Made by a program: the position numbers and the translations under genes. A stretch of DNA of 64,000 bases from a virus. This document shows, one piece after another, positions 17,059 to 60,089 of the stretch (position 1 is its first letter; the number at the start of each line of letters is the position of its first letter). The stretch lies in IMG/VR virus record IMGVR_UViG_3300020204_000005; one strand, given 5' to 3'. Under the pieces are notes generated by a model. It saw only the letters and a program-made list of their open reading frames with translations. It made no database searches and was not told the DNA's origin.

Positions 17059-17101
17059 TAAAAAATAAATAAACAAAAAAGCAAATAAAAAACCAAAAAA
17101 A

Positions 17102-20572: not shown

Positions 20573-21028
20573 ATGAAAAGATTAATTATAACTGAAGAAG
20601 AAAAAAGAAGTATTCTTTTAAAACACGGTAGTAAATCATTTTTAAATGAGGCTGCTAAAGACGATATTATGGCAATACAAAAATCTTTAGGTTTAACTGC
20701 GGATGGTGTGGCAGGACCTAAAACAATCTCATCTATTATCGCAAAATTAGGTGGAGGTTCATCAGCGGCGGCGACCAATAAAACCGCAACACCTACGACA
20801 CCTGCAACACCAACAACCCCTACTACACCTACTACACCAACAACCCCTACTACACCTACTACACCAACAACCCCTACTACACCTACTACACCTGCCGCGG
20901 CTACCACTACAACATTCTCAGCGGCACCTGTTGCGGGGGCAACAACTTTAGAACAAGCTTGTGGTACAAGAAAAACTAATAAAGACTATAGACTTTGTAA
21001 AAAAGTATTTAACAAAACTACCAAATAA
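20573..21028 (+). CDS. PG-binding-domain protein with PTT repeat
   Basis: MKRLIITEEEKRSIL leader; IMAIQKSLGLTADGVAGPKT; (PTT)n linker. Confidence 0.7.
   Translation: MKRLIITEEEKRSILLKHGSKSFLNEAAKDDIMAIQKSLGLTADGVAGPKTISSIIAKLGGGSSAAATNKTATPTTPATPTTPTTPTTPTTPTTPTTPTTPTTPTTPAAATTTTFSAAPVAGATTLEQACGTRKTNKDYRLCKKVFNKTTK
20807..20887 (+). repeat. 3 x 27-bp coding tandem repeat (TPTTPTTPT)
   Basis: ACACCAACAACCCCTACTACACCTACT repeated three times. Confidence 0.8.
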
Positions 21029-34578: not shown

Positions 34579-36087
34579 TTACATAACAATTATGTGTTTC
34601 TTTATCTTTTCTAAATTATTAATAACAAAAGGTTGTAAGGATTGAAAATAGTCTGTTTGTACTTTTAAAAGGTTGTCACTGTCCTCATTTCTGGTTTGAC
34701 TTTCTAAGTGATACGCAACTAAAGAACCGTCATAATAATTATCAAATCCTAATGTTACACATTTTAAATTCAACTCTACGTCCTCAAAACAACTAATATA
34801 ATTTTCATTAAAATAACCACATTTCTCAAAAACATTTTTACGTATCATCAATAATGCCGCAGTAGAACCCACAACTTTTTTTACATTGGTTGTAAAATTG
34901 TAATACGATTTTAAATTAGAGTGTGTCACTTGGAAAGCTCTTTTTTTATCAATGAATGTGACAATACCATCATGTTGTATTGTGTTATCTTCATAATGAA
35001 GTCTTGCACCAACAGTACCAACCTTTTTATTGTCATTAAAAATTTTTAACATTCCGTATACAACGTTATTTAATAATTTAATATCGTTGTTTGAAAATAA
35101 CAAATATTCATAATCACTTGAAATGTGATTTTTAACTATATCGTTATTTATCTGTGCAAAATTATAATAGTCATACTCGATTAGTTTTATATTACCCATT
35201 GGTAATATATTATTTTTAATCCATTCTTTTTCTTCTTTAGAAGACCCTGTATCACCAATAAAAATATCAAATAAATCACTATTACAGTTTTTATAAAATG
35301 ATTCTACACAATTAAATAAAAGATTAGTTTTACCTTTAGTGACAATAACGATTCCCACTTTACCAATATTCTTGATTGTTTTTTCAGTTATTTCAGGTAT
35401 ATAAACATCATTAGGTTTTAAATCTATTGGTAAATTTTTACCCCACTTTTCTAAAAATTTATCTTTAGACTCAAAAAATTCTTGATTAGGTTGACCTATT
35501 GATTCGTGAGTAATTTCAAATGACGAAGTTACTCCTAGTTTAACGTTATCTAAATAATTTGGGATGCAAAAACCGTGGTCATAAAAATGAAATTTACCAA
35601 AGGATTGGTCAAATAAATGTTTTATTTTTGTTTTATCAAATGAAATAAATAATCCATCAACACTTACAACAGGAATTAAAAAAGGTAATTTGGGTGAATA
35701 CTTACTTAAAAATTTTTTACCTCCTTTTGGATGGTGGTATACTTGACCAACCATTGTCTGTTGCATCCTTTCCCAATAAACACCTGATGAAGGGAAATAA
35801 CAAGTACCTGCTTTTCCAATTATACCGAATTCGGGATTATTAGAAAAATCCTCAAGTAATTTAACGCCCCATCCTTTTTCTAATTTAATATCGTTATGAC
35901 AACAAACAATAATGTCATACTTAGCTTCTTTGATTCCTTGATTGTAAACTTCAGATAGTGAATATTCATTATGATTTACATAAGGTAATACTTGTACCCA
36001 CTGAAGTCCTGATGTTAGTATAAGATGGTCATTAAATTTATCATTATACTCTTTGTCTTTATGTGTTGAATAGATTATTGTTATCAT
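34579..36087 (-). CDS. Two-domain glycosyltransferase (GT-A + GT2)
   Basis: YNQGIKEAKYDIIVCCHNDI; second domain NFAQINN, LFSNNDI, EDVELNLK, HLESQTR. Confidence 0.8.
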   Translation of the reverse strand: MITIIYSTHKDKEYNDKFNDHLILTSGLQWVQVLPYVNHNEYSLSEVYNQGIKEAKYDIIVCCHNDIKLEKGWGVKLLEDFSNNPEFGIIGKAGTCYFPSSGVYWERMQQTMVGQVYHHPKGGKKFLSKYSPKLPFLIPVVSVDGLFISFDKTKIKHLFDQSFGKFHFYDHGFCIPNYLDNVKLGVTSSFEITHESIGQPNQEFFESKDKFLEKWGKNLPIDLKPNDVYIPEITEKTIKNIGKVGIVIVTKGKTNLLFNCVESFYKNCNSDLFDIFIGDTGSSKEEKEWIKNNILPMGNIKLIEYDYYNFAQINNDIVKNHISSDYEYLLFSNNDIKLLNNVVYGMLKIFNDNKKVGTVGARLHYEDNTIQHDGIVTFIDKKRAFQVTHSNLKSYYNFTTNVKKVVGSTAALLMIRKNVFEKCGYFNENYISCFEDVELNLKCVTLGFDNYYDGSLVAYHLESQTRNEDSDNLLKVQTDYFQSLQPFVINNLEKIKKHIIVM

Positions 36088-37405
36088 AAATTTCGTCGAA
36101 TTTATCTTTCATTTCATGAAAGAATGGTGTTATTAAAGTTTGATGTGGAAAATCAATATAGTTATCATCATTAAAAGTTGGTTTTGGTCCATGAAAATGT
36201 AAAATTTTAATGCCATTAAACGGACCCCAATAAGGTTTATAATTAAACCTATAGTTTAATCTTTCAATTGATTCATTATAAAACATTTTGTACGCGTCTT
36301 GGTCGTACACATTAAATTTACTTAAATTTAATTTAATAAATTCAACGAACTCATTATAGGTATCTTTTAAATACCTCCAATTAATCCACATTACGCCGCT
36401 ATTCATATCCCAATGTTTACCAACTTTTGTAAATTCCCCAGCACACATAAATGTATTAGGTTTGTTATCTAAAATGTCAGAAATATCTGACATAAACATA
36501 ACATCATTATCGGTATACAAAACATAATCATCTTTAATATCAAGAGATTCACACACAATTGGTATATCAACTCTTAAAAAGGCTCCATAAGCAATTGTGT
36601 CATCACCGTAGTGTTTTTTTAAATCATCATAAAATGTTATCCTATGGTTTATTACTGTAACACCAAGTTTAGTTAATTCCTCGATATGGGAATCTTCTTC
36701 ACCATCAAGTATTAAGATAGGTGTTAAAAACGGATTTGTTTTTTTTGCGGTTATCACCGCAACTTTATACATCTTTATATAGTTTAAATAACTATTTTGA
36801 TTATGAGTGTTTAATCCAGTAAACCAATAAACATTCTTTGTTTGGTTATCTTTATTAGAAATTAATTTATACCAAGAACCGTCACCATAACTATTATCAG
36901 GTTTACCTAACATTTCGTTGACCGCAACTCTAACACCCGCAATATGTCTATGAACATTAACAAACTCATCAGTTTGATAATCATGACCTGAAATAACTTT
37001 TTTAACCAACGGACTCCAATGAACGATGTCATTTTTAACACATTCATATTTATGACAGGCATCAATATAAACCATATCACATTCTATAGAATAATCTGTA
37101 GTATAACCTTTAATTTTTCTAATATTTCCGTATAAAGAAGCTCTCAAATCAAATTGTTCCTCAACATCAACGTAATCGGCATAACTAGCGGAATCCGCAT
37201 CATCAAATCCACCTTCCCAAGAGTCAATACATATTATAATTCCGTTTGGGAATTCTTGAGCGAAGATTGCACTACTCTCACCCATATAGGAACCTAACTC
37301 AACAATTGTAGGAGATTCCCCTAATATGGGTTTTAAATCTTGACATAATTTTCTTAACTCTAACTCAAAATCATGAGTTCTCATTACAGTCTTCAATTCT
37401 TTCAT
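36059..37405 (-). CDS. Class I SAM methyltransferase (Methyltransf_24-like) fused to a GT8-like glycosyltransferase
   Basis: VELGSYMGES, YIDACHKY, GHDY; then FLRVDIP, LYTDNDVMF, NSGVM, DQD, ILHFHGPKP. Confidence 0.78.
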   Translation of the reverse strand: MKELKTVMRTHDFELELRKLCQDLKPILGESPTIVELGSYMGESSAIFAQEFPNGIIICIDSWEGGFDDADSASYADYVDVEEQFDLRASLYGNIRKIKGYTTDYSIECDMVYIDACHKYECVKNDIVHWSPLVKKVISGHDYQTDEFVNVHRHIAGVRVAVNEMLGKPDNSYGDGSWYKLISNKDNQTKNVYWFTGLNTHNQNSYLNYIKMYKVAVITAKKTNPFLTPILILDGEEDSHIEELTKLGVTVINHRITFYDDLKKHYGDDTIAYGAFLRVDIPIVCESLDIKDDYVLYTDNDVMFMSDISDILDNKPNTFMCAGEFTKVGKHWDMNSGVMWINWRYLKDTYNEFVEFIKLNLSKFNVYDQDAYKMFYNESIERLNYRFNYKPYWGPFNGIKILHFHGPKPTFNDDNYIDFPHQTLITPFFHEMKDKFDEIYDNNNLFNT

Positions 37406-38001
37406 ATTCCTGTAGAACCAAATCCATTCTCCCCTCTATCTTTATTTTTTTGATTTTTATTTTCGGTTAACTCTACCCATTTACCATTTACTACAGGACA
37501 TAAAACCGCTTGAGCAACTTTCATTCCTTTTGGAATCATAACATTATAGTTGTTGGTGTTAAATATAATCACCTGTATCTCTCCTGTATAACCATTATCT
37601 ACAGTACCTGGTGAATTTAATACCATTAAACCTTGTTTTAAAGATAACCCACTTTTAGACCTTACCTGAATTTCATATCCGTCTTTAATGTCTAAAGAAA
37701 TTCCTGTTGGTACCAAAACTCTACCAAATGGAGGGATATCAACGTCAATTACAGAATGTAAATCAAATCCTGAATCGCTTGGATAATTGTATTTTGGCTC
37801 AACGGAATCAGGGTGTAACTTTACAAATCCAAGAGGTAATTTAGGGTTGTAGTTGGATAAATCATCCTCGAGAGATTTCATATCTAACCCAAAGTCATTT
37901 AAAATCATATCATAATCCAACTCACCGTTCCCACTCTCATCAATCATTTTTTGGAGTTTTTTTGCATACTCACTTAAGTCTAAATCATCAAGTCCATTCA
38001 T
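37402..38001 (-). CDS. dut: dUTPase (trimeric) with acidic N-terminal extension
   Basis: SGFDL, KSGL, GTVDNGYTGEI, AQAV, RGENGFGSTG. Confidence 0.95.
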   Translation of the reverse strand: MNGLDDLDLSEYAKKLQKMIDESGNGELDYDMILNDFGLDMKSLEDDLSNYNPKLPLGFVKLHPDSVEPKYNYPSDSGFDLHSVIDVDIPPFGRVLVPTGISLDIKDGYEIQVRSKSGLSLKQGLMVLNSPGTVDNGYTGEIQVIIFNTNNYNVMIPKGMKVAQAVLCPVVNGKWVELTENKNQKNKDRGENGFGSTGI

Positions 38002-38711
38002 TATTGTAAATTTTTTAATTTTTTAATTGTGTCGACTAAAACAACAACATCTTTTTCACAGTATTCTGAGATTGATTTTAAATCTTGTTTTTCCCAATAG
38101 GTTTCATGTACCTTATCACCTGTAACTTCACCATCTTTAGGTGTTGGGATTTCTAAACAACTACACATTAAATCTAATGAACCAATTGAGGAGTACGCTC
38201 CGTATTGCCAAATTTCTTTAGTGTCAATTGCCTTTACTTCCCATGGTTTTGTATCATAAGATGGAAGAATTTTTGACGGCATAATACCATTGATAATCAT
38301 TCTTTTAGCTAACATCGGGATATCAAAATTCTTAAGATTGTGACCACATAAATAAAAATCTAATTTGTGACACCTATCAAGTAAATTTCTAACTTGGATT
38401 AATAATTCTTTTTCGTTATTACCTGAAAAAGTTTGTTTTTTAACATCTCCATTATCCATAACAAACGCCATTGATACACAAACTATTTTTGCAAACTCAG
38501 GTACTAGAGCAGCTCTTCGTTTAAACATAAAATTTTTAGAGTCGATGTCAACCGTAGCATCTTCAGGGAATCTTTTTTGGAACCAATCAAAATACTTTTC
38601 AAATTGACTAGCAATCTCAGGACTAAATTTTTGACAAGAATCATAGTCGGGACAACCCCCGACAGTTTCAATGTCTAAGAATAAAATTTTTGTAATTGGT
38701 ATATTAATCAT
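38001..38711 (-). CDS. PolB-related 3'-5' exonuclease (DEDD)
   Basis: FLDIETV, GHNLKNFDIP, YCEKDV. Confidence 0.85.
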   Translation of the reverse strand: MINIPITKILFLDIETVGGCPDYDSCQKFSPEIASQFEKYFDWFQKRFPEDATVDIDSKNFMFKRRAALVPEFAKIVCVSMAFVMDNGDVKKQTFSGNNEKELLIQVRNLLDRCHKLDFYLCGHNLKNFDIPMLAKRMIINGIMPSKILPSYDTKPWEVKAIDTKEIWQYGAYSSIGSLDLMCSCLEIPTPKDGEVTGDKVHETYWEKQDLKSISEYCEKDVVVLVDTIKKLKNLQ

Positions 38712-38714
38712 AAC

Positions 38715-39932
38715 TTATTTAATTAGTGATTTGTAAAATTCTTTTCGCAAAGTAGTAACATTTTGCAAATTGTATTTGTCTTTAACAGTTTCATATAGTC
38801 TTTCACCCATATCTGTCATTAGGTTTGGATTTTGTAATAATTTTTTAATGAATTTATGCCAATCACTATGATTTCTATTTTCATTAACTAACATAGCATT
38901 ACCATCAACAAACTCACCATTTTTTAGACAATGTTTAAGGTCTATAGTGTAAGGTCCTATTTCGGAAGCGATTAATGCCTTTTTATAAAATCCCGCCTCA
39001 ATCACTTTTAATTGAGATTTCATTCTATTGAATATGTGGTTTTTGATTGGAGCTAAAGATATGTCAAACTTAGAGTAGTTAGAGGCATATTGTGTTACAG
39101 GTCTTGTCCATACTCTAACATAAGGTAATGACTTATCAGTCATATAATTTTTTTCCTCATACAACGTTAGATATTTTTTATAGTCTTCATCGATAATACT
39201 ATATTTATCTGTAAATATTTCTTCATAACGAGCCCAAACAGTTTCTTCAGGTCTAATTGGTCTTTGTTTTTTTTCTCCCGTTTGTTTGTTAATTTCTGTT
39301 ATATGACCTCTAGTATCGAAACCACATAAAACATATTGTATGTTATTTTTTAATGAACTGTTTTTTGTTACAAATCCATCTAATAACTTTAAATCATGTA
39401 AGTGGGAAGAACCACCTAACCAACCAACTCTAATTCTATCAGATTCTAATGTTGGTTCTTTAAACTGAGGTTCATTTGGGTCCACTGCATTTGGTAAAAC
39501 AATTACGTTTTTGTTAAATTTACGTATTTCATTTGCAAATATTTCAGTAGTTGTTGTAACATAACTAGCTTCTTTTAGATTAGCAACAATTTTTTCATGT
39601 ATTTTTTCTTGTAAAATAATACTATGGATAGGATGTTCTTTTGTCGGTAACCAATAATCATCAATATCAACTACTACAACAATACCCATTGATTTTAAAT
39701 TTCTAATTATCGCAGGACAGGAGTCGTAATTTTGACCAATGTTTCTATGTACATGGACTATTTGGTACTTCTTCCAATAATTGGGGTCACTAATTCTTGG
39801 TTCATAATCGATATCGACATGAAAATCATCATTATACATGTTTTGTAACATTATATGGGGGTCAATCGACCTAAATTTACCAACACCTGTACGGTCTGAT
39901 GGTAATACTAAAACTTTAATTTTTTCTGACAT
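38715..39932 (-). CDS. Glycosyltransferase, GT-B type
   Basis: DIDDY, RVGWLGGSSHLHDL, DISLAP...FNRMKSQLKVIEAG; start moved to MSEKIK (39932). Confidence 0.78.
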   Translation of the reverse strand: MSEKIKVLVLPSDRTGVGKFRSIDPHIMLQNMYNDDFHVDIDYEPRISDPNYWKKYQIVHVHRNIGQNYDSCPAIIRNLKSMGIVVVVDIDDYWLPTKEHPIHSIILQEKIHEKIVANLKEASYVTTTTEIFANEIRKFNKNVIVLPNAVDPNEPQFKEPTLESDRIRVGWLGGSSHLHDLKLLDGFVTKNSSLKNNIQYVLCGFDTRGHITEINKQTGEKKQRPIRPEETVWARYEEIFTDKYSIIDEDYKKYLTLYEEKNYMTDKSLPYVRVWTRPVTQYASNYSKFDISLAPIKNHIFNRMKSQLKVIEAGFYKKALIASEIGPYTIDLKHCLKNGEFVDGNAMLVNENRNHSDWHKFIKKLLQNPNLMTDMGERLYETVKDKYNLQNVTTLRKEFYKSLIK

Positions 39933-39999
39933 ATTTTTATATATAACATAGAAAATATAGTCAGATAAACAGACATTATCAATATAATAATAAATAAAA

Positions 40000-40021
40000 A
40001 ACCCCATCGATTGACGGGGTT
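40000..40021 (-). terminator. Terminator-like hairpin
   Basis: AACCCC...GGGGTT with an A-run on the left, just past the stop of ORF 40026..40619. Confidence 0.55.
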
Positions 40022-42618: not shown

Positions 42619-42631
42619 GACTTTTTTATCA

Positions 42632-42658
42632 ATAAATACTTCGTTTTAATGTATTTAT
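42632..42658. promoter_or_regulatory. Back-to-back TATTTAT putative late promoters
   Basis: ATAAATA at 42632-42638 (faces ORF 42618, minus) and TATTTAT at 42652-42658 (faces ORF 42670, plus). Confidence 0.5.
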
Positions 42659-42669
42659 CATAAAAAAAG

Positions 42670-45519
42670 ATGTCGAGTCAAAATATAAATCAATATGTAA
42701 GGAACAACCTATACCCAAAACTTTATTTGGATAGTTATGATATGTCCCTAACATCTGATGAAACAGATTTTAATCAGGAGGTTGTTTTCTCACCTTATTT
42801 AATCGCTCAAACATATGGTAATAAACTACCAATCAATATTGACATAAATAATATTGATACCGTCCAAAATTTAAATTTAACATATAAAAATTATAACAAT
42901 AACAATATTTTTGTTTCTCAAAATTATTACAACCCTGATAAATTAGATTTGAAATGTTTTACTGCAGAAACTTCATGTGATATAGGTTTAACAGGAATTG
43001 ATAACGGTTTAGTAAATAAAATGACAGGTCAAACCATAACATTTACTAAAGGTTTATTTTCAGATTTTTTAAAATTTGATAGGTTAAGTTTTGATAGAAG
43101 ATTCAAAATGTTCCAAGTAACGGGGTATACAAATACTCCAAATGTAAGATTTTCTGGTTTTAATAATACCGTATTATATGAAGTCGTTAGTAAAAACGAC
43201 CCTGTAATCGGTAGATACCACGAATTATATGGAGGGTTTTATCAAGGGTTTTATAAACTTCATGGTTATGATTATGAAATTTTTCCTGAAAGGATGACCA
43301 AAGGGTGGTCGGTCGAAATGATTCTTAAACCGAGATTATTTAATGAATATGTACTAGGACCTGGCGAGACAACATTAAATGGGATATACCCAAATAATAA
43401 AAATACATTTTTTTATTTTGGTACTAGAGCCGAGAATAAGTTTTATCATCATGCGGATGGTACTCCTGATTGTTTTACAGGTTATACTCGAGTAACAACT
43501 CCTTTAACGGGTTTAAGTACATGCGCATGTTGTGATTTAACAATAAAGAATAGTAGATGTATATATGTATACCCGCCAAGGTCTAAGGATGGTAAACATG
43601 ACCCTAGAGTTAATTATGGTTGTGATACATGTGGTGGTTTAAAGACAAAACAGTTATCATGCGGGTGTGGTTGCGACAAACCACAATGTGAGAATTGTGG
43701 GTGGGAATGTCAAACACACATTTGCCCAACAACACCCACCCCAACCCCAACTCAAAGTCCTACACCAACCCCAACAAGTAATAATTGTATTGTTACCCCT
43801 ACTTGTACACCTACATGTACTAAGTGTGATACTTGCGATGACTGTTTAGATTGTAAACCTGAAGGTTTTTCTTCTATTGAGGACACTTGTGAAAAGGACC
43901 CATTATACGACTCAATGTCAAATGCTTTTTCATTAAGATTATGTGGAGACCCTAAAAACCCAAAAATAGGTGTTAGATTTTTAAGATTTACAGGTGATTG
44001 TACAACTTCAGGAGAGTGTTCTACTAGTGGAATCACATACTCAACGGGATATACTATAACTGATATATGTACACCACCAATATACCCAAGATGTGAAAAA
44101 GAAAATCCTGCTTGGTTAAATGAAGAACATTGGTTCCAAGTTAATGTTGTTTGGGAAAGATATACTTGGTTCGATTACTGTGATTTAAAATATCGTGGTG
44201 GATTAGGTGATATAACTAAACAAGTTTATTTAGAATCTTTAGCAAATAATACAACCTCATTAATTAGTACTCCTTACACAAAAGAAAATGGTAAAGTTGC
44301 TGAAAAAATGGATATCATCAATTTAAATGAAAAATGGTTAATTGAGGGTAAAATGAGAAAGGGTAGATTAAAAATCTACATTAATGGTAAGATATTTCAC
44401 ACTATCGAGGATTTTGAGGAAATTATACCAAGAGCTCTAAATACTGATAAAGAAAAACAGGTTGGTGTACCATTTAATATCTCATGGGGCGGAGGAACAC
44501 AAGGGCTTAGAGAAAACTTAACCTTCTCCTCAACAACAATTCCTAATGGACCCTATATCCAAGACCCTGAGTGTTTTCCAACTAATGATTTAACGGCAAC
44601 AACATTCAATGGGTTAACTACTAATATTTTAATCGAACAAAATTTTGCAGGTACTTTTGATGGAGGAATCTCACAATTTAGAATGTATGTAGAACCATTA
44701 TCGGCACCTGAAGTTAAACACAATTTTAAATTACTTGTAAGTAAATTTAATATGTTTAATCCAGATTGTCCTAATTGTTCAACAACAATATGTAAACCTG
44801 ACGACATTACTTATATACTTTCTGCAGATACTCCAACCACAACAACTGAAGACCCATTTGGTAACGAACCTTTAGGTAGATTATATATTGAGGATTTAAG
44901 AGATAAAAATTATTTGATTGAAAGGAAGTTAAAATTAACTCCTAATAAACCAACTACAATGTATTGGGAGTCCGATGAATGGTGGGGAGACCAAGGAAAA
45001 ACTTCTGAATGTGTTGGTTACGCTTGGGCTCATTGGGTCGAGGACGGGCCAATCAAACATAGCGGTATCGCTCCAATAGTTCACCCAACAATTATTTATA
45101 AAGAAGCTCAAAAAATAGATGAGTGGCCTGGTGAAAATTATAAAGGAACTTCTGTTAGAGCGGGGGCCAAATATTTAAAGAGTATTGGTAGAATTGAGCA
45201 ATATTTATGGACTTATGATATAAACGTTTTAATATCGACTGTATTAACTAAAGGACCTGTTGTTGTCGGTACTAATTGGTACTCATCGATGAATAGACCT
45301 AATATTAATGGTTTAATGAAAGTTTCGGGTTTCAAGATTGGAGGTCATGCCTATGTTATCAATGGTGTTGATACAATTAAAAAACAATTTAGAATTAAAA
45401 ATAGTTGGGGTCGTTCTTGGGGTAAACAAGGACATGCCTTTATTTCTTTTAATGATATGAATAAACTTATTAGACAAAACGGTGAAGTTTGTTTAGCTAT
45501 AGAAAAAAGGTCTAACTAA
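42670..45519 (+). CDS. Putative virion protein: LamG/concanavalin-like domain interrupted by a Cys-rich/PT segment, fused to a papain-family (C1) peptidase
   Basis: [40 protein letters not shown] (LamG-like); [23 protein letters not shown] (C1 triad). Confidence 0.72.
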
Positions 45520-46082
45520 TGAGTGAAATTATAGTAATAAAAAGTATAAATTACGATGGTGAATTGGCGAATGTGTTATTTAAACCATCGGGGTCTAACA
45601 AAGTCATTAATTTGGGTAATATTACATTACCTTTTGAATTCGACCCTTCTTTATTAGTTCCTCCTTTAAAACCATATGGTGATTACACTATTTTCCTTGT
45701 TGAGGAAAGTTGTACTTATTATTTAAACGTTCCTGCACCAACTCCAACTCCAACACCTAGTAACACAACTACAAAAACCCCCACACCAACACCAACTCCT
45801 ACCCAAACACCAACTCAAACTATTGACCCTTGTAAATTTATTACACCAACACCAACTAAAAGTGTTACACCAACTAAAACACCTAAATCATCTCCAACAC
45901 CTACACCAAGTTGGGACCCGTGTATAACACCATTCCCAACTAAAACTCCAACACCTACTAATACTCAAACGCCTACATTAACTCCAACACCAACACTTAT
46001 TACTTATTATATCACGAGTGAATCGGGTAATCCTATAATTTCTGAAGATAATAATTATATTATTCCTGAAGATTGTGAATAA
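45519..46082 (+). CDS. Small PT-rich putative virion protein
   Basis: Short beta domain followed by about 90 aa of T/P repeat; TAATG coupling to the upstream gene. Confidence 0.7.
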
Positions 46083-46102
46083 CGATAAATATATATTATT
46101 AA

Positions 46103-49100
46103 ATGATTCAATCAATAGAAATAACTGGTGCGTCAGGTACAGGTCCTTACGACATTGAGGTATGTGATATCACATTATCATTGTGTGTACCAATTGCGTC
46201 ATCAGTTCCTATACCACCAACCTATCAATTTACATTACCTAACGTTTTAAGTGGTGCAACTGAAGTTGTTGTAAGATTAATTGATTCTGAGGGATGTCCT
46301 TGTTTACAGGTATGCCCATGTATTTTACCTAGCCAAACGCCAACATTAACCCCTACAATAACACCAACAATGACAGTTAATTGTAATTGTCTTGAGTTTA
46401 ATAATGAGGATGTTATTGAACATACAATTTCTTTTATTGATTGTAGTGGTAATAATATAGACACTGTTATTTCACCTGAAACGGTATTAACTTTTTGTGG
46501 TAAAAGTCCTTCAGTTAGTAGCCCTTCAGTTATTGTTACAATAGGGGATTTTTGTGTTGGAGGAGTGTGTCCTCCCCCACCACCGACATTAACTCCTACA
46601 CAAACACCGACTAACACCTCAACACCAACAATTACACCAACAAAAACATTGGTACCTTTAGTGGGATATTTCCAATATTGTTGTGACCCGTCAAATATTG
46701 TTATTATCTCAACAATTCCTCTTAGTTATTATCCATTGAGTGGAGTTTATTATGTTGAAAGTGCAGGTTTTAATGGTTGTGTTACTTCAATACCTCCAAC
46801 ATTTTCACCTAATGCGTATGTTTACATCGATGCAATATCGTTTACTTCATGTTCTGATTGTGAATCAACTTATCCATGTCCTTCACCAACCCCTACTGTA
46901 ACACCTACCATCACCCCAACGGAAACCGTTACACCCACTGTAACATCGACCCCAACTACAACGCCAACAGTTACACCAACGGAAACCGTTACACCCACTG
47001 TAACATCGACCCCAACTACAACGCCAACAGTTACACCAACCGAAACTGTCACTCCAACAGTTACTATAACACCTACTAATACCGTCACTCCAACAGTTAC
47101 TAAAACATCAACTCCTACTATTACTCCCACTAAAACTTCAACTGTTACCCCAACTGTAACTAGAACCCAAACGATTACACCAACTAATACGGTAAGACCA
47201 ACTAATACTCCTACCAATACTATAACTCCAACAAAAACTCAAACACCAACTATTACACCAACACACACAATTACTCAGACTAATACGGTAACGCCAACTA
47301 ACACTGTTACCCCAACTAATACCATTACCCCAACAATTACAAGAACTCCAACTAATACCATAACACCAACTAATACACCTACTAATACTGTAACTCCGAC
47401 TAATACTATAACTCCAACTAATACTGTAACTCCGACTATAACACCTACTAATACCATTACCCCAACAATTACAAGAACTCCAACTAATACCATAACACCA
47501 ACTAATACACCTACTAATACTGTAACTCCGACTAATACTATAACTCCAACTAATACTGTAACTCCGACTATAACACCTACTAATACTGTAACTCCAACTA
47601 ATACTATAACTCCAACTAATACTGTAACTCCATCTATCACGCCTACTAAAACTGTAACACCTACTAATACTATTACTCCAACTATTTCATTAACACCAAC
47701 AAGAACTCAAACTCCAACTATAACACCTACTAATACTGTAACTCCAACTAATACTGTAACTCCATCTAATACTGTAACTCCGACTATAACACCTACTAAT
47801 ACTATTACTCCAACTATTTCATTAACACCAACAAGAACTCAAACTCCGACTATAACACCTACTAATACTATTACTCCAACTAATACTATAACTCCAACTA
47901 ATACTGTAACTCCGACTATAACACCTACTAATACTATTACTCCAACTAATACTGTAACACCTACTAATACTGTAACTCCAACTAATACTGTAACTCCAAC
48001 TAATACACCTACTAATACTGTAACTCCGACTATAACACAAACACCAACTAATACTGTCACCCCTACAGTTACTCCAACTATTTCATTAACACCAACAAGA
48101 ACTCAAACTCCAACTATAACACCTACTAACACTGTAACTCCAACTAATACTGTAACTCCGACTATAACACCTACTAATACTGTAACTCCAACTAATACTG
48201 TAACTCCGACTATAACACCTACTAATACTGTAACTCCGACTAATACTGTAACTCCAACTAATACTGTAACTCCGACTATAACACCTACTAATACTATTAC
48301 TCCAACTAATACTGTAACTCCAACTATAACACCTACTAATACTATTACTCCAACTAATACTGTAACTCCATCTATCACGCCTACTAAAACTGTAACACCT
48401 ACTAACACTGTAACTCCAACTAATACTGTAACTCCAACTAATACTATAACTCCAACTAATACTCAAACTCCATCTATCACACCTACTAAAACTGTAACTC
48501 CAACTAATACCATAACACCAACTAATACTGTAACTCCGACTAATACTCAAACTCCATCTATCACGCCTACTAAAACTGTAACTCCAACTATAACACAAAC
48601 ACCAAGTAATACTGTAACTCCGACTATAACACCTACTAATACCATAACACCAACAAGAACTCAAACTCCAACTATAACACCTACTAATACTATTACTCCA
48701 ACTATTTCATTAACACCAACAAGAACTCAAACTCCAACTATAACACAAACACCAACTAATACACCTACTAATACTGTAACTCCGACTAATACTGTAACTC
48801 CGACTAATACTATAACTCCATCTATCACGCCTACTAAAACTGTAACACCTACTAATACTATTACTCCAACTAATACACCTACTAATACTGTAACTCCAAC
48901 TAATACTGTAACTCCATCTATCACGCCTACTAAAACTGTAACACCTACTAATACTATTACTCCAACTAATACTGTAACTCCAACTAATACACCTACTAAT
49001 ACTGTAACTCCAACTAATACTGTAACTCCATCTATCACGCCTACTAAAACTGTAACACCTACTAATACTATTACTCCAACTAATACTGTAACTCCGACTA

Positions 49101-50893
49101 TAACACCTACTAATACCATAACACCAACTAATACTCAAACTCCATCTATCACGCCTACTAAAACTGTAACACCTACTAATACTATTACTCCAACTAATAC
49201 TGTAACTCCGACTATAACACCTACTAATACTGTAACTCCAACTAATACTGTAACTCCAACTATAACACCTACTAATACTGTAACTCCAACTAATACTATA
49301 ACTCCAACTAATACTCAAACTCCATCTATCACACCTACTAAAACTGTAACTCCAACTATTTCATTAACACCAACAAGAACTCAAACTCCGACTATAACAC
49401 CTACTAATACTATTACTCCAACTAATACTATTACTCCAACTAATACCATAACACCAACTATAACACAAACACCAACTAATACAGTTACTCCAACTATTTC
49501 ATTAACACCAACAAGAACTCAAACTCCAACTATAACACCTACTAATACTATTACTCCAACTATTTCATTAACGCCAACAAGAACAGTTACACCATCTATA
49601 ACTCCAACTAATACTATAACGCCAACAAGAACAGTTACACCATCTATAACGCCAACAAGAACAGTTACACCATCTATTACACCTACAGTTACACCAACAA
49701 CACCATATAGGTTTTATTTAATGAGTGATTGTTGTACAAATACTAAAACTAATGTAATGAGTTTACCGACCGCATTTGCATCTGTAGGAAATACTTTTGT
49801 TTCTACAGGAGGAGTTTGTTATTCGGTATCGGCAATCGTTGAGGGACCTGCAAATGTTACTTGGAATGGGGGTACTATATATAGTGGGGGTACTCCATCT
49901 GAAAATTGTACTAGATGTACCGCGGCCAATATTTGCCCTTCACCTACCCCAACGACTACAAAAACACCGACACCTACCCCAACAATTACAAGAACACCAA
50001 CAGTAACACCAACAAGAACTCAAACTCCAACTATTTCATTAACACCAACAAGAACTCAAACTCCGACTATAACACCTACTAATACTATAACTCCAACTAA
50101 TACTGTAACTCCAAGTAATACTGTAACTCCGACTATAACACCTACTAATACTATTACTCCAACTATTTCATTAACACCAACAAGAACTCAAACTCCAACT
50201 ATAACACCTACTAATACTATTACTCCAACTATTTCATTAACACCAACTAGAACTGTAACACCTACAGTAACTCCAAGTATTTCTGTTTCACCAACTAGAA
50301 CTGTAACACCTACAGTAACTCCAAGTATTTCTGTTTCACCAACTAGAACTGTAACACCTACAGTAACTCCAAGTATTTCTGTTTCACCAACTAGAACTGT
50401 AACACCTACAGTAACTCCAAGTATTTCTGTTTCACCAACTAGAACTGTAACACCTACAGTAACTCCAAGTATTTCTGTTTCACCAACTAGAACTGTAACA
50501 CCTACAGTAACTCCTACCATTTCATTAACGCCGACTAGAACTGTAACACCTACAGTAACTCCTACCATTTCATTAACACCAACGAGAACTCAAACCCCAA
50601 CTATAACCCCTACACCAACAATGACACCAACACCAACACAGTGTGGGGATGCTTCATGTTGTCAAATAGAATTATGTTTTGGGCCTGATTGTAGGGGGGC
50701 TTGTGGTTGTAATCAAACAGACACATTCTATCTACATTTACCGTGTGGTGGTAATTGTAAATTATCAAATGCGGATGGTATATTTGAGGACCCGAGGTGT
50801 ACAACTCCGGCAAATAGAAAGTACTATTCAGATGGGAATGATTGTTACTATTGGGATGGAATAAGTTCATTATCTTACGAAGGCCCTTGTTAA
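46103..50893 (+). CDS. Mucin-like 1596-aa Thr/Pro-repeat protein with interspersed Cys-rich domains
   Basis: Long (TPTNTV/I)n tracts about 46883-49704 and 49940-50640, separated and flanked by Cys-rich domains; no signal peptide. Confidence 0.85.
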   Translation: MIQSIEITGASGTGPYDIEVCDITLSLCVPIASSVPIPPTYQFTLPNVLSGATEVVVRLIDSEGCPCLQVCPCILPSQTPTLTPTITPTMTVNCNCLEFNNEDVIEHTISFIDCSGNNIDTVISPETVLTFCGKSPSVSSPSVIVTIGDFCVGGVCPPPPPTLTPTQTPTNTSTPTITPTKTLVPLVGYFQYCCDPSNIVIISTIPLSYYPLSGVYYVESAGFNGCVTSIPPTFSPNAYVYIDAISFTSCSDCESTYPCPSPTPTVTPTITPTETVTPTVTSTPTTTPTVTPTETVTPTVTSTPTTTPTVTPTETVTPTVTITPTNTVTPTVTKTSTPTITPTKTSTVTPTVTRTQTITPTNTVRPTNTPTNTITPTKTQTPTITPTHTITQTNTVTPTNTVTPTNTITPTITRTPTNTITPTNTPTNTVTPTNTITPTNTVTPTITPTNTITPTITRTPTNTITPTNTPTNTVTPTNTITPTNTVTPTITPTNTVTPTNTITPTNTVTPSITPTKTVTPTNTITPTISLTPTRTQTPTITPTNTVTPTNTVTPSNTVTPTITPTNTITPTISLTPTRTQTPTITPTNTITPTNTITPTNTVTPTITPTNTITPTNTVTPTNTVTPTNTVTPTNTPTNTVTPTITQTPTNTVTPTVTPTISLTPTRTQTPTITPTNTVTPTNTVTPTITPTNTVTPTNTVTPTITPTNTVTPTNTVTPTNTVTPTITPTNTITPTNTVTPTITPTNTITPTNTVTPSITPTKTVTPTNTVTPTNTVTPTNTITPTNTQTPSITPTKTVTPTNTITPTNTVTPTNTQTPSITPTKTVTPTITQTPSNTVTPTITPTNTITPTRTQTPTITPTNTITPTISLTPTRTQTPTITQTPTNTPTNTVTPTNTVTPTNTITPSITPTKTVTPTNTITPTNTPTNTVTPTNTVTPSITPTKTVTPTNTITPTNTVTPTNTPTNTVTPTNTVTPSITPTKTVTPTNTITPTNTVTPTITPTNTITPTNTQTPSITPTKTVTPTNTITPTNTVTPTITPTNTVTPTNTVTPTITPTNTVTPTNTITPTNTQTPSITPTKTVTPTISLTPTRTQTPTITPTNTITPTNTITPTNTITPTITQTPTNTVTPTISLTPTRTQTPTITPTNTITPTISLTPTRTVTPSITPTNTITPTRTVTPSITPTRTVTPSITPTVTPTTPYRFYLMSDCCTNTKTNVMSLPTAFASVGNTFVSTGGVCYSVSAIVEGPANVTWNGGTIYSGGTPSENCTRCTAANICPSPTPTTTKTPTPTPTITRTPTVTPTRTQTPTISLTPTRTQTPTITPTNTITPTNTVTPSNTVTPTITPTNTITPTISLTPTRTQTPTITPTNTITPTISLTPTRTVTPTVTPSISVSPTRTVTPTVTPSISVSPTRTVTPTVTPSISVSPTRTVTPTVTPSISVSPTRTVTPTVTPSISVSPTRTVTPTVTPTISLTPTRTVTPTVTPTISLTPTRTQTPTITPTPTMTPTPTQCGDASCCQIELCFGPDCRGACGCNQTDTFYLHLPCGGNCKLSNADGIFEDPRCTTPANRKYYSDGNDCYYWDGISSLSYEGPC
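46921..47040 (+). repeat. 2 x 60-bp perfect tandem repeat
   Basis: Lines 46921-46980 and 46981-47040 are identical. Confidence 0.9.
50246..50485 (+). repeat. 5 x 48-bp perfect tandem repeat (TRTVTPTVTPSISVSP)
   Basis: ACTAGAACTGTAACACCTACAGTAACTCCAAGTATTTCTGTTTCACCA repeated five times. Confidence 0.88.
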
Positions 50894-50898
50894 TAAAA

Positions 50899-50923
50899 AA
50901 CCCCCACTTTTAAGGTGAGGGTT
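50899..50923. terminator. Imperfect terminator-like hairpin after the mucin-like gene
   Basis: AACCCCCACTT-TTA-AGGTGAGGGTT. Confidence 0.5.
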
Positions 50924-50979: not shown

Positions 50980-52227
50980 ATGAAAATTTTTGTTCAAATT
51001 GCCTCATATAGAGACCCCCAATTAATACCAACAATAAAAAACATGTTTGAAAATGCTAAAAGACCAAAAAATTTGGTTTTAAGTATTTGTAGACAATATC
51101 ACCCTGAAGATGGTTTCGATAATCTTGATGAATATAAAAGTGATAAAAGATTTAGAATTATTGATGTTTTGTATTCAGAGTCTAAAGGAGTTTGTTGGGC
51201 GAGAAATCTAACACAACAACAATATCAAGGTGAAGATTATACATTACAAATCGACTCTCACATGAGGTTTGAGAAAGATTGGGATGATACTCTAATTAAG
51301 ATGATTAAACAACTCCAAAAGAAAGGGTTTGATAAACCTCTGTTAACAGGTTATGTTTCATCATTTGACCCAGATAACGACCCCGCAGGTAGGGTTCAGG
51401 AACCATGGAGAATGGTATTTGATAGATTTATACCTGAAGGTGCGGTTTTCTTTTTACCTGAAACAATACCTGGCTGGAGGGAAATGGAAGAACCTGTTAC
51501 GGCAAGATTTTATTCTGCTCACTTTGCATTTACGTTAGGTAAATTTAGTGAAGAGGTTCAACATGACCCCGAGTTTTACTTCCATGGAGAAGAGATTTCA
51601 ATAGCCGCAAGAGCATATACTCATGGTTATGATTTATTCCATCCTCATAAAGTTGTGATTTGGCATGAATACACTCGTAAAGGAAGAACAAAACAATGGG
51701 ACGATGATAAAGATTGGGCAACAAAAAATAATTTATCACATTCTAAAAATAGACAATTATTCGGTATGGATGGGGAAGAAGTTTTATTAGATTTTAGTAA
51801 ATACGGATTTGGTACCGAAAGAACTCTAAAAGATTATGAAATCTATTCAGGTTTAAGATTCTCAAGAAGAGCGGTCCAACAATATACATTAGATAAACAT
51901 TACCCACCAAACCCAACAATATATAATACTGATGAAGAATGGGAGAGTAGCTTTGCATCAATCTTCAAACATTGTATTGATATTGGGTTTACTCAAGTAC
52001 CTGAAAAAGATTATGAGTTTTGGGTGGTTGCGTTTCATGATGAAAAGGATGAAACAATTTTCCGAAAAGATGCCGACATCAATGAAATTAATGGTATGAT
52101 GAATGACCCTGATGGATATTGTAAAGTGTGGAGAGAATTCCAAACATCTCATAAACCAAAATATTGGGTTGTATGGCCTTATAGTGTATCAAAAGGATGG
52201 TGTGAAAGATTAACGGGTAATTTGTAA
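50980..52227 (+). CDS. GT60-family polypeptide alpha-GlcNAc transferase (Gnt1/TcOGNT-like)
   Basis: IFVQIASYRD, SKGVCWAR, LQIDSHMRF (DSH motif), WD..LI, FHGEEISIAARAYTHGYDLFHP, WHEY. Confidence 0.85.
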   Translation: MKIFVQIASYRDPQLIPTIKNMFENAKRPKNLVLSICRQYHPEDGFDNLDEYKSDKRFRIIDVLYSESKGVCWARNLTQQQYQGEDYTLQIDSHMRFEKDWDDTLIKMIKQLQKKGFDKPLLTGYVSSFDPDNDPAGRVQEPWRMVFDRFIPEGAVFFLPETIPGWREMEEPVTARFYSAHFAFTLGKFSEEVQHDPEFYFHGEEISIAARAYTHGYDLFHPHKVVIWHEYTRKGRTKQWDDDKDWATKNNLSHSKNRQLFGMDGEEVLLDFSKYGFGTERTLKDYEIYSGLRFSRRAVQQYTLDKHYPPNPTIYNTDEEWESSFASIFKHCIDIGFTQVPEKDYEFWVVAFHDEKDETIFRKDADINEINGMMNDPDGYCKVWREFQTSHKPKYWVVWPYSVSKGWCERLTGNL

Positions 52228-58229: not shown

Positions 58230-60089
58230 ATGGAATTCTTTATTAAGAAAAATGCAACATTACCCATATTAAAATTACAGGTAGTAAAGGACGGTAGAAG
58301 TGATTATGATAACTTTATGAAGACCATAGAGTTGTCCGCCATCTTCTTTTCTATGGTTGATGTTGAATCAGGTATTCCTAAAATTTCATCGAGACCTGCA
58401 GGATTTGTTGAGAAGGAGTTTATTGAACCGAATGCAGAACCCGAGTACTACATATATTACCAATTCCAAAATAGAGATACTAATAAAGTAGGTAGATATG
58501 AAGGTCAATTTATGTTAAGAACCGATGATGGTGTCTTAATATTACCTATCAGAGAAAAATTATTTATTAATATACAAGAATCATTTATTGCGAATGATTT
58601 ACCTTATGAAAGTTGTTATACTTCGGAATTCCCTTGTTGTGTTAATCATCCTTATATAACAACCACAACCACAACCACAACACCTTGCCCTAGTTGTCCT
58701 ACATGCCCTGAGCCAACACCTACACCAATAACCACAACTACAACAACTATAGAACCAATAACCACAACTACAACAACTATAGAACCAATAACCACAACTA
58801 CAACAACTATAGAACCAATAACCACAACTACAACAACATTTCCACTATCTGTTATTTTAGATGTTAATATTAATCCAGGGTCAATAATTATTGATTATAA
58901 TTTGACATCAAATCAAGTTTATTATGAAGAAATAAGTATGAGTTTTACTCATATATTAGGTACAACAGAAACGTCAATAACAATTGTTACAGGTGTAACA
59001 ATTCCTATTGGTTATACGACAGGGAATACCCAAGTAATTATAAATGAAGATTTTAACATATTAACTAAAAACGATTCTTTTGGTAATTTCATAGTCAACC
59101 CTCCATCATTAGATTGGGTCGTGTATGAAAATTATCCGACACCTACACCAACTGTAACCCCAACTTTGACACCAACACCTACCAAAACAGTTACTCCGAC
59201 AATTAGTGTTACACCTACACTTACAACCACACCGACTGCCACTTTGACGCCAACAGTTACACCAACCTTAACACCTACAAACACACCTACTAATACACCA
59301 ACATTAACTCCTACTGAAACACCTACTAATACTCCGACTAACACTCCTACAGAAACGCCTACTTTAACACCAACGAATACCCCTACTATTACCCCAACAC
59401 CATCACCATTACCCCAACTACCAATATTGGTCGATAACTGGGATACTTTATTGAACTACTCTATAACGGGAGTGACCTTAAATTCCGTGACACCAACAAA
59501 TACCGGTGGGTCAAACTTCCCTCTTGATGGTTATCCTAATGTGAATTATGAAGGTACGTTTGTATCTACCGAATCTAATCCATTAACAATTCAAGTAGGG
59601 TATAATAGCTCAACATTTGTTCCTGGTATGTATATACAGGTGAGTCACTCAAGTATTGGTTACGCTGTTGAAAATATTTTATCCACGTCTGGAGTTGCAA
59701 CGTTTGGTCCGTACAATTTATATTTTGGAAGTCAACTCTTAATTGAGTTGTTTTCCCCATCAATACTTTTTAAAATGGTAAATAACTCCACAAATAGAAC
59801 TGTTACAAGTGCTTCATATACTATTGGAGGACCAACAGTAAGTTTAGATGTGGGTTCATTCCCAATAAACTCAACAAATTCGGCGGGTTCTTTCACACAT
59901 CCTTCTAGTACAGGTGTGGCACCTGATGCAATAAATTACACTATTGGCGGTACAGGTAATTACACATACGTTGTACTCCGTAATGGAGTTGGAGTGAAAA
60001 GTCAAATAAATACAAATATTAACAATATAATTGTTACTGGTGTGACTTTCTCATCAAGTGATGAAATTATATTAGAAATGTATAACTAA
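58230..60089 (+). CDS. Putative virion fibre: BppU-like N-terminal anchor + Thr/Pro stalks + C-terminal beta domains
   Basis: TLPILKL...FFSM...[15 protein letters not shown] resembles baseplate-upper N-domains; [10 protein letters not shown] repeats and a PT tract. Confidence 0.6.
58725..58837 (+). repeat. About 3.8 x 30-bp tandem repeat ([10 protein letters not shown])
   Basis: CCAATAACCACAACTACAACAACTATAGAA repeated. Confidence 0.85.

Follow-up and report, generated by a model that had tools for sequence, protein, structure and literature searches.

A 1596-residue phage protein of threonine/proline repeats and cysteine modules, probably a long sugar-coated adhesion fibre

Among phages, glycosylation of structural proteins is considered rare, and to our knowledge the few characterised cases are short tags on capsid or tail-tube subunits. 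In mycobacteriophages Che8, Corndog and Myrna, the subject of a 2023 study by Freeman et al., phage glycosyltransferases reportedly act in the host cytoplasm on structural proteins of the phage itself. In the streptococcal and staphylococcal adhesins GspB, Fap1 and SraP, very long repeats of hydroxy amino acids receive O-linked N-acetylglucosamine (GlcNAc) in the cytoplasm and form a stalk that presents a binding region. The subject here is a gene in a 64,000-nucleotide (nt) stretch of viral DNA, IMG/VR record IMGVR_UViG_3300020204_000005, referred to as a whole as the window. The gene encodes P0001, a modular protein of 1596 amino acids (aa) dominated by threonine (Thr) and proline (Pro), and is followed directly by a gene for a GT60 (PF11397) polypeptide GlcNAc-transferase-like enzyme. 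P0001 probably serves as a long adhesion fibre coated with sugar, a type of protein so far undescribed in phages.

Two further systems bear on this gene pair. The GT60 enzyme of Trypanosoma cruzi transfers GlcNAc onto Thr (PMC3769586), and the gp72 protein of the same organism has a PTVTPT-type tract that is heavily glycosylated, with about 30 glycan units (PMC3630849). Among cultured phages, the closest case is XacN1, whose virions yield at least two periodate-Schiff-stained protein bands; ORF334, the GT60 homologue, is named as one of only two glycosyltransferases of this phage (PMC5852040). In the accessible part of that report, the authors drew no link between the Thr/Pro tracts of XacN1 and either the enzyme or the stained bands (PMC5852040). 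The open-access literature yielded no description of a phage protein like P0001, of Pro/Thr linkers in phage fibres or of GT60 in phages.

At a probability of roughly 55%, P0001 is a fast-evolving, probably virion-borne fibre that combines a conserved anchor with an O-glycosylated spacer, modules stapled by disulfides and a binding tip open to exchange. Its parts, and the elements immediately downstream, lie in the window as follows.

46103..50893 (stop codon included), plus strand: whole gene for the 1596-aa modular Thr/Pro-repeat protein P0001, a single ATG-to-stop open reading frame (ORF).
46103..46330, plus strand: D1, residues 1-76, an FnIII/Ig-like beta-sandwich with 6 cysteines (Cys); the conserved family start and likely anchor.
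46376..46582, plus strand: D2, residues 92-160, a second beta-sandwich domain with 6 Cys, predicted at a confidence (pLDDT) of 85-98.
46658..46885, plus strand: M1, residues 186-261, a six-Cys module with the spacing CC-x31-C-x23-CxxC-x5-CP.
46886..49702, plus strand: PT1, residues 262-1200, a 939-aa tract of alternating (Ser/Thr)-X; likely an O-glycosylated spacer.
49703..49945, plus strand: M2, residues 1201-1281, a divergent second six-Cys module, CC-x27-C-x29-CxxC-x5-CP.
49946..50638, plus strand: PT2, residues 1282-1512, a 231-aa alternating tract.
50222..50590, plus strand: 48-nt tandem array in PT2, 7.7 copies with 94% matches.
50639..50890, plus strand: CT, residues 1513-1596, the C-terminal 12-Cys module; a mobile unit and likely distal binding tip.
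50899..50923, no strand assigned: hairpin with a 9-bp stem between the P0001 and GT60 genes, six bases past the stop codon.
50980..52227, plus strand: GT60 (PF11397) polypeptide GlcNAc-transferase-like gene, DSH motif at residues 92-94, the proposed modifying enzyme.

The initial annotation had read 46103-50893 as the gene of a 1596-aa phage protein, and this is borne out. An open frame as long as this one, in DNA of 31-36% G+C, cannot have arisen by chance, and the frame is confirmed because homologues conserve the N- and C-terminal domains. The phage origin is corroborated by genes in the window for a large terminase, a portal and a gp23-type (T4-type) major capsid protein. By composition count P0001 is 37.3% Thr, 16.4% Pro and 2.3% Cys. 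The 36 Cys are distributed as six each in D1, D2, M1 and M2 and 12 in CT, with none in the tracts, so that the Cys-rich N- and C-terminal domains that had also been claimed are present, with 12 Cys in D1 plus D2 and 12 in CT. Short Pro/Thr (PT) linkers separate D1 from D2 and D2 from M1. P0001 has no secretory signal peptide (the 19-residue hydropathy maximum of its N-terminal part is 1.5, centred in D1), and no LPXTG-type anchor motif was found at its C-terminus. Antisense ORFs across the repeat were set aside as a by-product of ACN/CCN codons.

The two tracts had been described as about 940 and about 230 aa long and roughly half Thr. PT1 measures 939 aa, with 47.9% Thr and 18.2% Pro (66% for the two together), and PT2 measures 231 aa, with 41.6% Thr (62% with Pro). 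Both are long Pro/Thr/Ser-rich tandem-repeat tracts of the mucin-like class, and their commonest hexamers are TPTNTV (n = 42) and TPTNTI (n = 31). Beyond plain Thr-richness, they are a strict dipeptide alternation, a feature that the initial annotation lacks. In PT1, 468 of 475 Ser/Thr residues fall on one parity and the longest unbroken (Ser/Thr)-X run extends over 833 residues. In PT2, 227 residues form one single run, whereas composition-matched shuffles produce runs of at most 15 residues. Pro, Asn, Ile or Val occupies the X position. The tracts of orthologues alternate likewise, in runs of about 100-390 residues. PT1 has 3 Asp/Glu against 26 Lys/Arg and a Thr:Ser ratio of about 18:1, and the tracts together offer about 590 hydroxyl residues. 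N-glycosylation of PT1 was considered and set aside, the number of N-x-S/T sequons being 0. By simple arithmetic the contour length of PT1 is about 235-320 nm, in keeping with the earlier claim of a reach of hundreds of nanometres, for which extension, sugar and attachment to the virion are presumed.

What might decorate such a chain? The gene directly 3' of P0001 matches PF11397 with an E value of 2.9e-73, and its product has no hydrophobic segment. GT60 also lies directly downstream of the fibre gene in the related contigs L001-L004, and the pairing recurs in many relatives. Farther along are genes for proteins with methyltransferase and HtrL/FkbM domains, and six more genes of the window encode glycosyltransferase or sugar-methyltransferase domains. 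The Thr specificity of the T. cruzi enzyme matches the 18:1 Thr:Ser ratio of PT1. There is also a second lineage in which enzyme and tract occur together. GT60 homologues at 47-48% identity are present in the cultured jumbo phages XacN1 and Xoo-sp13 of Xanthomonas and CM1 of Stenotrophomonas, where TPTxTPT sites number 51, 51 (Xoo-sp13, W02) and 22 (CM1, W03), with 0 for a reversed-pattern control. Three capsid relatives that lack PF11397 have 0 such sites. XacN1, Xoo-sp13 and CM1 are related to each other and therefore count as one extra lineage only. The XacN1 tracts are of the same alternating style and reach about 170 aa; they occur in ORF369, ORF370 and ORF372, whose genes come straight after those of the tail sheath, and in ORF384, of 2823 aa (AP018399.1 248000-279000, L097). 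Taken as context, the adjacent PF11397 gene, the second lineage and the staining of XacN1 virions make O-glycosylation of the tracts plausible.

However, the tracts might be plain extended spacers, comparable to the Pro/Thr boxes of bacterial glycoside hydrolases, with GT60 and the other glycan genes serving a different substrate, be it other phage proteins or a host surface polymer. Pro/Thr linkers are generally known to space domains without sugar, as in cellulases. In one group of relatives (L070-L088) GT60 follows a gene without a PT tract, and the GT60 gene of XacN1 adjoins no PT-tract gene. Nevertheless, GT60 and TPTxTPT occur together in two lineages and are both missing from the three capsid relatives, and there is a strong bias for Thr over Ser among some 590 tract hydroxyl residues. 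A bare chain rich in Thr, Val and Ile would also tend to aggregate. In addition, glycoproteins are present in XacN1 virions (PMC5852040). On balance, an unglycosylated linker is unlikely.

The spacing CC-x27-31-C-x23-29-CxxC-x5-CP attributed to two internal modules is exact in both M1 (Cys 193, 194, 226, 250, 253 and 259, then Pro260) and M2 (Cys 1210, 1211, 1239, 1269, 1272 and 1278, then Pro1279). Elsewhere in the window, the strict six-Cys pattern occurs only as one chance regular-expression match in a Cys-rich neighbouring ORF of 949 aa. M1 and M2 share 24% identity (E 0.011) with all six Cys in register. Against a hidden Markov model (HMM) for which only modules from other contigs were used, M1 obtains 81 bits and M2 obtains 9.3 bits (conditional E 7e-5). 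The Cys register and these independent scores make M2 a divergent member of the module family of M1. M2 also has homologues at 51-57% identity (P0002 and P0003). The search for homologues proposed at the outset did find a family, with 52 distinct module copies collected, and Thr/Pro tracts punctuated by a repeated six-Cys module are a trait of the orthologues too. Structure prediction, likewise proposed, was a partial success: D1 and D2 folded, whereas M1 stayed below a pLDDT of 50 even with a 69-sequence alignment.

Among the 52 distinct modules, 36 have all six Cys. Cys1 and Cys4 are missing jointly in 11, Cys4 alone is missing in 1 and Cys1 alone in 0. The 11 modules may share ancestry and are not to be read as 11 independent events. 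The joint loss nonetheless suggests a bond between Cys1 and Cys4 inside the module, and this pattern suggests intradomain disulfides rather than interchain gel links in the M modules. The four remaining Cys are nearly invariant and could form two disulfides or a metal site.

Could P0001 be a true gel former all the same? In that case disulfides between the Cys-rich ends of different chains would create a network, or a coat around the particle, as they do in animal MUC2 and MUC5. Cys-rich terminal domains and Cys modules between Pro/Thr/Ser (PTS) tracts are what such a protein should have, and all Cys counts are even, which is compatible with full pairing. However, an even count in each domain leaves no obvious free Cys, and the joint loss of Cys1 and Cys4 points to a pair within the domain. 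Pfam returns no VWD, C8, TIL, CysD or cystine-knot domain even at E<=10, and in orthologues the C-terminus is swapped for lectin-like or propeller-type domains, which fits a tip and not a polymerisation knot. A gel former is thus very unlikely.

The tip argument rests on comparison of loci. IMG/VR contains 282 relatives of the GT60 protein, of which the best 80 were used. The genes directly upstream of GT60 take 60 distinct forms. PT tracts are present in 43 of these, D1-D2 in 27 and the M module in 16, and in 8 a tract reaches 500 aa or more. Among orthologues in this slot, tract length ranges between about 30 and about 1,000 aa and the number of M modules between 0 and 6. Where the module is present there are one to six copies, with five in L054 and six in L069, a protein of 3304 aa with 108 Cys. 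The C-terminal domains found in the slot are DUF285, DUF5122 propeller repeats, Fib_succ_major, Laminin_G_3 (a ConA-like lectin) and the 12-Cys module; a BNR/Asp-box match is weak and sub-threshold. Metagenome homologues have C-terminal DUF285 plus PKD. In the closest relative, L009, the GT60 protein is 95% identical, whereas identity over residues 1-262 of the fibre is only 63% and another C-terminal module has taken the place of CT, and the fibre gene is therefore fast-evolving.

The CT module itself travels. Its homologues, at 50-63% identity, form the C-terminus of proteins of about 160 aa with an unrelated N-terminus and a PT linker, and one CT-bearing gene (L007:1065-1547) stands directly after a collagen-like tail-fibre gene (L007:2-1063). 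This same L007 gene is also beside that of a 971-aa glycosyltransferase-methyltransferase fusion. A conserved N-terminal part joined to an exchangeable C-terminal part is the hallmark of receptor-binding proteins, and here D1-D2 is kept in 27 of the 60 slots. To judge from the sequences, P0001 and its orthologues follow the pattern of phage receptor-binding proteins and other adhesins: the N-terminus is conserved, the middle elastic and the C-terminus swapped.

The conserved end is a family of its own. A HMMER search with residues 1-262 against 1.84 billion representatives found 251 clusters at E<=1e-3, 18 of them at E<=1e-30, all metagenome proteins. Among 153 proteins collected, D1 is present in 112, D2 in 76 and M (by the module HMM) in 32. 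AlphaFold (AF2) with the 69-sequence alignment models D1 (pLDDT 88-96) and D2 (85-98) as beta-sandwiches joined by short PT linkers at 46-64; from the single sequence, residues 1-262 reach a pLDDT of 36. Ten of the 12 Cys of the pair are at least 90% conserved across the 69 homologues, namely C21, C28, C65 and C73 in D1 and C94, C96, C114, C132, C151 and C156 in D2. Foldseek of the model against PDB gave nothing at E<=0.001, the matches in BFVD are solely uncharacterised proteins of uncultured phages, and those in the ESM Atlas are weak (0.80) and belong to viral clusters. VIA-align returned only tied generic FnIII-type domains at Z<=7.0, the FnIII domain of T5 pb4 being one of many tied at Z of about 6. 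No Pfam family matches the whole of P0001, nor D1, D2, M1, M2 or CT, at E<=10. In PHROGs, the single match is a family without known function, reached through a PT linker. A tblastn search with residues 1-266 found no match in 50,697 deposited phage genomes, and a scan of species-representative prokaryote genomes found no relative of P0001.

How might these parts work together? P0001 has no signal peptide and so would be made in the host cytoplasm, late in infection. The adjacent GT60 enzyme would add GlcNAc to the Thr residues of the tracts, the surrounding glycosyl- and methyltransferases would extend the sugar, and the glycans together with the regular prolines would hold the chain extended. 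The D1-D2 pair would fasten the protein to the particle. After lysis, oxidising water would close the intradomain disulfides of the Cys modules, and the chain would act as a flexible tether 200-300 nm long that offers its binding tip to host cells or polysaccharide particles. A wider proposal can be made tentatively, as somewhat short of an even bet. Large freshwater phages would carry out complete mucin-type O-glycosylation in bacteria, with GT60 and the extension enzymes coating a strictly alternating (Thr-X)n chain of up to about 1,000 residues, a tether of hundreds of nanometres with exchangeable lectin-like tips that would serve for capture and be far longer than any known tail fibre. If this is true, the pairing of enzyme and tract in Xanthomonas and Stenotrophomonas jumbo phages would point to a widespread, overlooked class of virion glycoprotein.

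Several observations do not sit easily with a virion-borne, glycosylated fibre. Cys-rich proteins from a reducing cytoplasm are unusual. The P0001 gene stands amid glycan and replication genes, outside the head module (8.9-19 kb of the window), and no PHROG tail-fibre family matches its product. No homologue was found in the 50,697 deposited phage genomes, so there is no characterised protein whose properties could be carried over to P0001. The M module has no confident fold, M1 remaining below a pLDDT of 50, and its four invariant Cys might bind metal instead of forming disulfides. The adjacency of GT60 within one clade is inherited synteny and therefore not independent evidence, and in the L070-L088 group, at 77-78% identity, the gene upstream of GT60 has no PT tract at all. 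Both the sugar and the virion location are deduced for a phage known from its genes alone. Finally, the stained bands of XacN1 are given no assigned protein in the accessible part of that report (PMC5852040).

A further concern is whether the tract length is real. Might the repeat have been over-expanded or mis-joined in assembly, the true gene being far shorter or split? The DNA repeats of the tracts are hierarchical, and one part of them is a fair target for this suspicion. The 48-nt array of PT2 includes about 274 nt of perfect tandem repetition (an exact repeat of 226 nt at an offset of 48), and with short reads the number of its copies is less certain than anything else in the assembly. 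In the syntenic scaffold L001 the gene measures about 4.8 kb and its tract is interrupted by N gaps, and several related IMG/VR contigs (e.g., L010, L013, L040, L051 and L073) stop within about 1-2 kb upstream of GT60, which marks the region as hard to assemble. However, the other repeats are mostly diverged (60-72% matches), exact repeats outside the array do not exceed 140 nt, the window has no N, and the 4.8-kb frame is open with conserved in-frame domains at either end. Tracts of 1012 aa (L083), 931 aa (L045) and 675 aa (L009) occur on independent contigs from other samples. Assemblers struggle here, yet the overall scale of the tract is reproducible across contigs, and an artefact of assembly is highly improbable. 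Assemblies also seem to break in the Thr/Pro repeat, so that full-length forms of the family are probably under-represented in public gene catalogues.

A folded rod, short and stiff at about 25 nm, in which a beta-solenoid or left-handed hexapeptide beta-helix turns every sixth Val/Ile inwards, would suit the strict Thr alternation (as on one face of a beta-strand), the commonest Val/Ile/Leu spacing (6 in 81 of 157 intervals) and the general frequency of beta-helical fibres in phage tails, but can hardly be correct when hydrophobic spacings of 4 (40 intervals) and 10 (20) and Pro spacings of 6 (118) and 4 (47) break any fixed coil register, the tract is 18% Pro, short PT linkers are modelled at low confidence (pLDDT 46-64) and tract length varies about 30-fold among orthologues. 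The hexapeptide beta-helix of PF00132 (Hexapep) in particular was set aside, there being no fixed six-residue period and no Pfam match.

The source of the window is an uncultured tailed phage, large and T4-related. Its nearest deposited relatives are a 484-kb metagenomic phage, Microcystis phage Mel-JY01 and Flavobacterium phage immuto, a megablast of the head module gave no match, and related IMG/VR contigs reach 215-322 kb. Upstream of P0001 are genes for a 949-aa papain-type-peptidase protein (42670-45519) and a 187-aa PT-tract protein (45519-46082). The former is the Cys-rich neighbour mentioned above; it contains 36 Cys and a PT insert and ends in a papain-family peptidase (PF00112 at threshold; phrog_16701 at 3e-56). 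Its gene adjoins the fibre gene in L001 too, and XacN1 has a C1 peptidase near its largest PT-tract protein. These two upstream genes are among four other PT-tract ORFs in the window (20573-21028, 42670-45519, 45519-46082 and 58230-60089), whose products are possible additional substrates of the same glycosylation system. A (TTP)n protein of 151 aa is encoded about 1.6 kb downstream of the capsid gene, and another, of 619 aa, has poly-Thr and PT tracts.

Some smaller features of the window complete this description. A second group of glycan genes on the minus strand (34579-40007), interleaved with PhoH and a 3'-5' exonuclease, encodes a double GT2 protein, a methyltransferase plus nucleotide-sugar transferase-like protein and another glycosyltransferase. 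The hairpin at 50899-50923 scores as terminator-like on the minus strand. The motif xATAAATA is found at 46084-46091, 17064-17071 and 42631-42638, which is 19-39 nt upstream of the fibre, major capsid and 949-aa protein genes. It is near the T4 late-promoter consensus. However, the genome is AT-rich and the motif may be there by chance, and for this reason it is not taken as evidence of late expression.

The locus would add several things to what is known of phage glycoproteins: a dedicated substrate on the scale of a mucin, a family of enzymes for the initiating step that is otherwise known from protists, and a hypervariable slot with cassette-like swapping of binding domains, spread over at least 282 viral contigs. 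Were the chain both extended and fixed to the virion, a particle's effective capture radius would change several-fold, and this would bear on adsorption kinetics in dilute waters, on adherence to particles or mucus and on the evolution of host range. As protein parts, the (Thr-X)n design and the modules with six and with 12 Cys are all uncharacterised and lend themselves to direct tests, and the link to XacN1 provides a cultured system, with deposited virion proteomics data (PXD008065), for the hypothesis that the enzyme acts on the tracts.

How does P0001 compare with the systems that it recalls? The initial annotation had spoken of a true mucin architecture. The architecture stands, in that PTS tracts alternate with a six-Cys module between Cys-rich ends. 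Kinship with the animal gel-forming mucins does not, and was set aside because none of their defining domain-level features was found, whether VWD, CysD, cystine knot or signal peptide. The gel-forming mucins MUC2, MUC5AC and MUC5B share with P0001 the long Pro/Thr/Ser tracts, the small Cys-rich interruptions and the Cys-rich ends, and their initiating polypeptide HexNAc-transferase is of the same GT-A superfamily type as the enzyme that is here encoded beside the P0001 gene. However, P0001 has no VWD/C8/TIL assemblies, and its D1 and D2 are plain FnIII/Ig-like sandwiches without a Pfam family at E<=10. M1 and M2 have 6 Cys in about 80 aa and no WxxW, whereas CysD (Mucin2_WxxW) has 10 in about 110 aa. 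CT has no cystine-knot match at E<=10 and is exchanged in orthologues for lectin-like or propeller-type domains. The strict dipeptide alternation of the tract, the exchangeable C-terminus and the lack of a signal peptide are further differences. P0001 is a mucin by analogy only, not by descent.

The protist GT60 glycoproteins, among them the T. cruzi mucins and gp72 and the spore-coat and prespore proteins of Dictyostelium, share PTVTPT-type tracts with sugar on Thr (PMC3630849, PMC3769586), and their initiating enzymes belong to the PF11397/GT60 family encoded next to P0001. However, in protists the enzyme acts within the Golgi, on proteins that are secreted or GPI-anchored, whereas the phage enzyme and substrate have no signal or membrane segments and would meet in the bacterial cytoplasm, and the P0001 tracts are 10-50 times longer. 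The cultured phages XacN1, Xoo-sp13 and CM1 have a GT60 homologue, many (Thr-X)n tracts and a nearby papain-type peptidase, and XacN1 virions stain for glycoprotein (PMC5852040). XacN1 also encodes four large tract proteins just after its tail-sheath genes. It differs in that its tracts do not exceed about 170 aa, D1-D2, M and CT are undetected and GT60 is away from the tract genes.

Cytoplasmic modification itself has precedents. In Che8, Corndog and Myrna, unlike here, sugar is reportedly added to short extensions at the C-termini of capsid and tail-tube subunits, by enzymes from other families, and no giant repeat protein or Cys module is involved. The serine-rich repeat glycoproteins GspB, Fap1 and SraP show that the proposed cytoplasmic chemistry is feasible in bacteria. 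However, those adhesins depend on a special signal peptide, accessory Sec export, an LPXTG anchor and GtfA/GtfB, none of which is found in the P0001 system. By analogy, the working of P0001 is probably closest to the protist GT60 substrates in its chemistry, to the streptococcal serine-rich adhesins in its stalk and to phage receptor-binding proteins in its anchor and tip.

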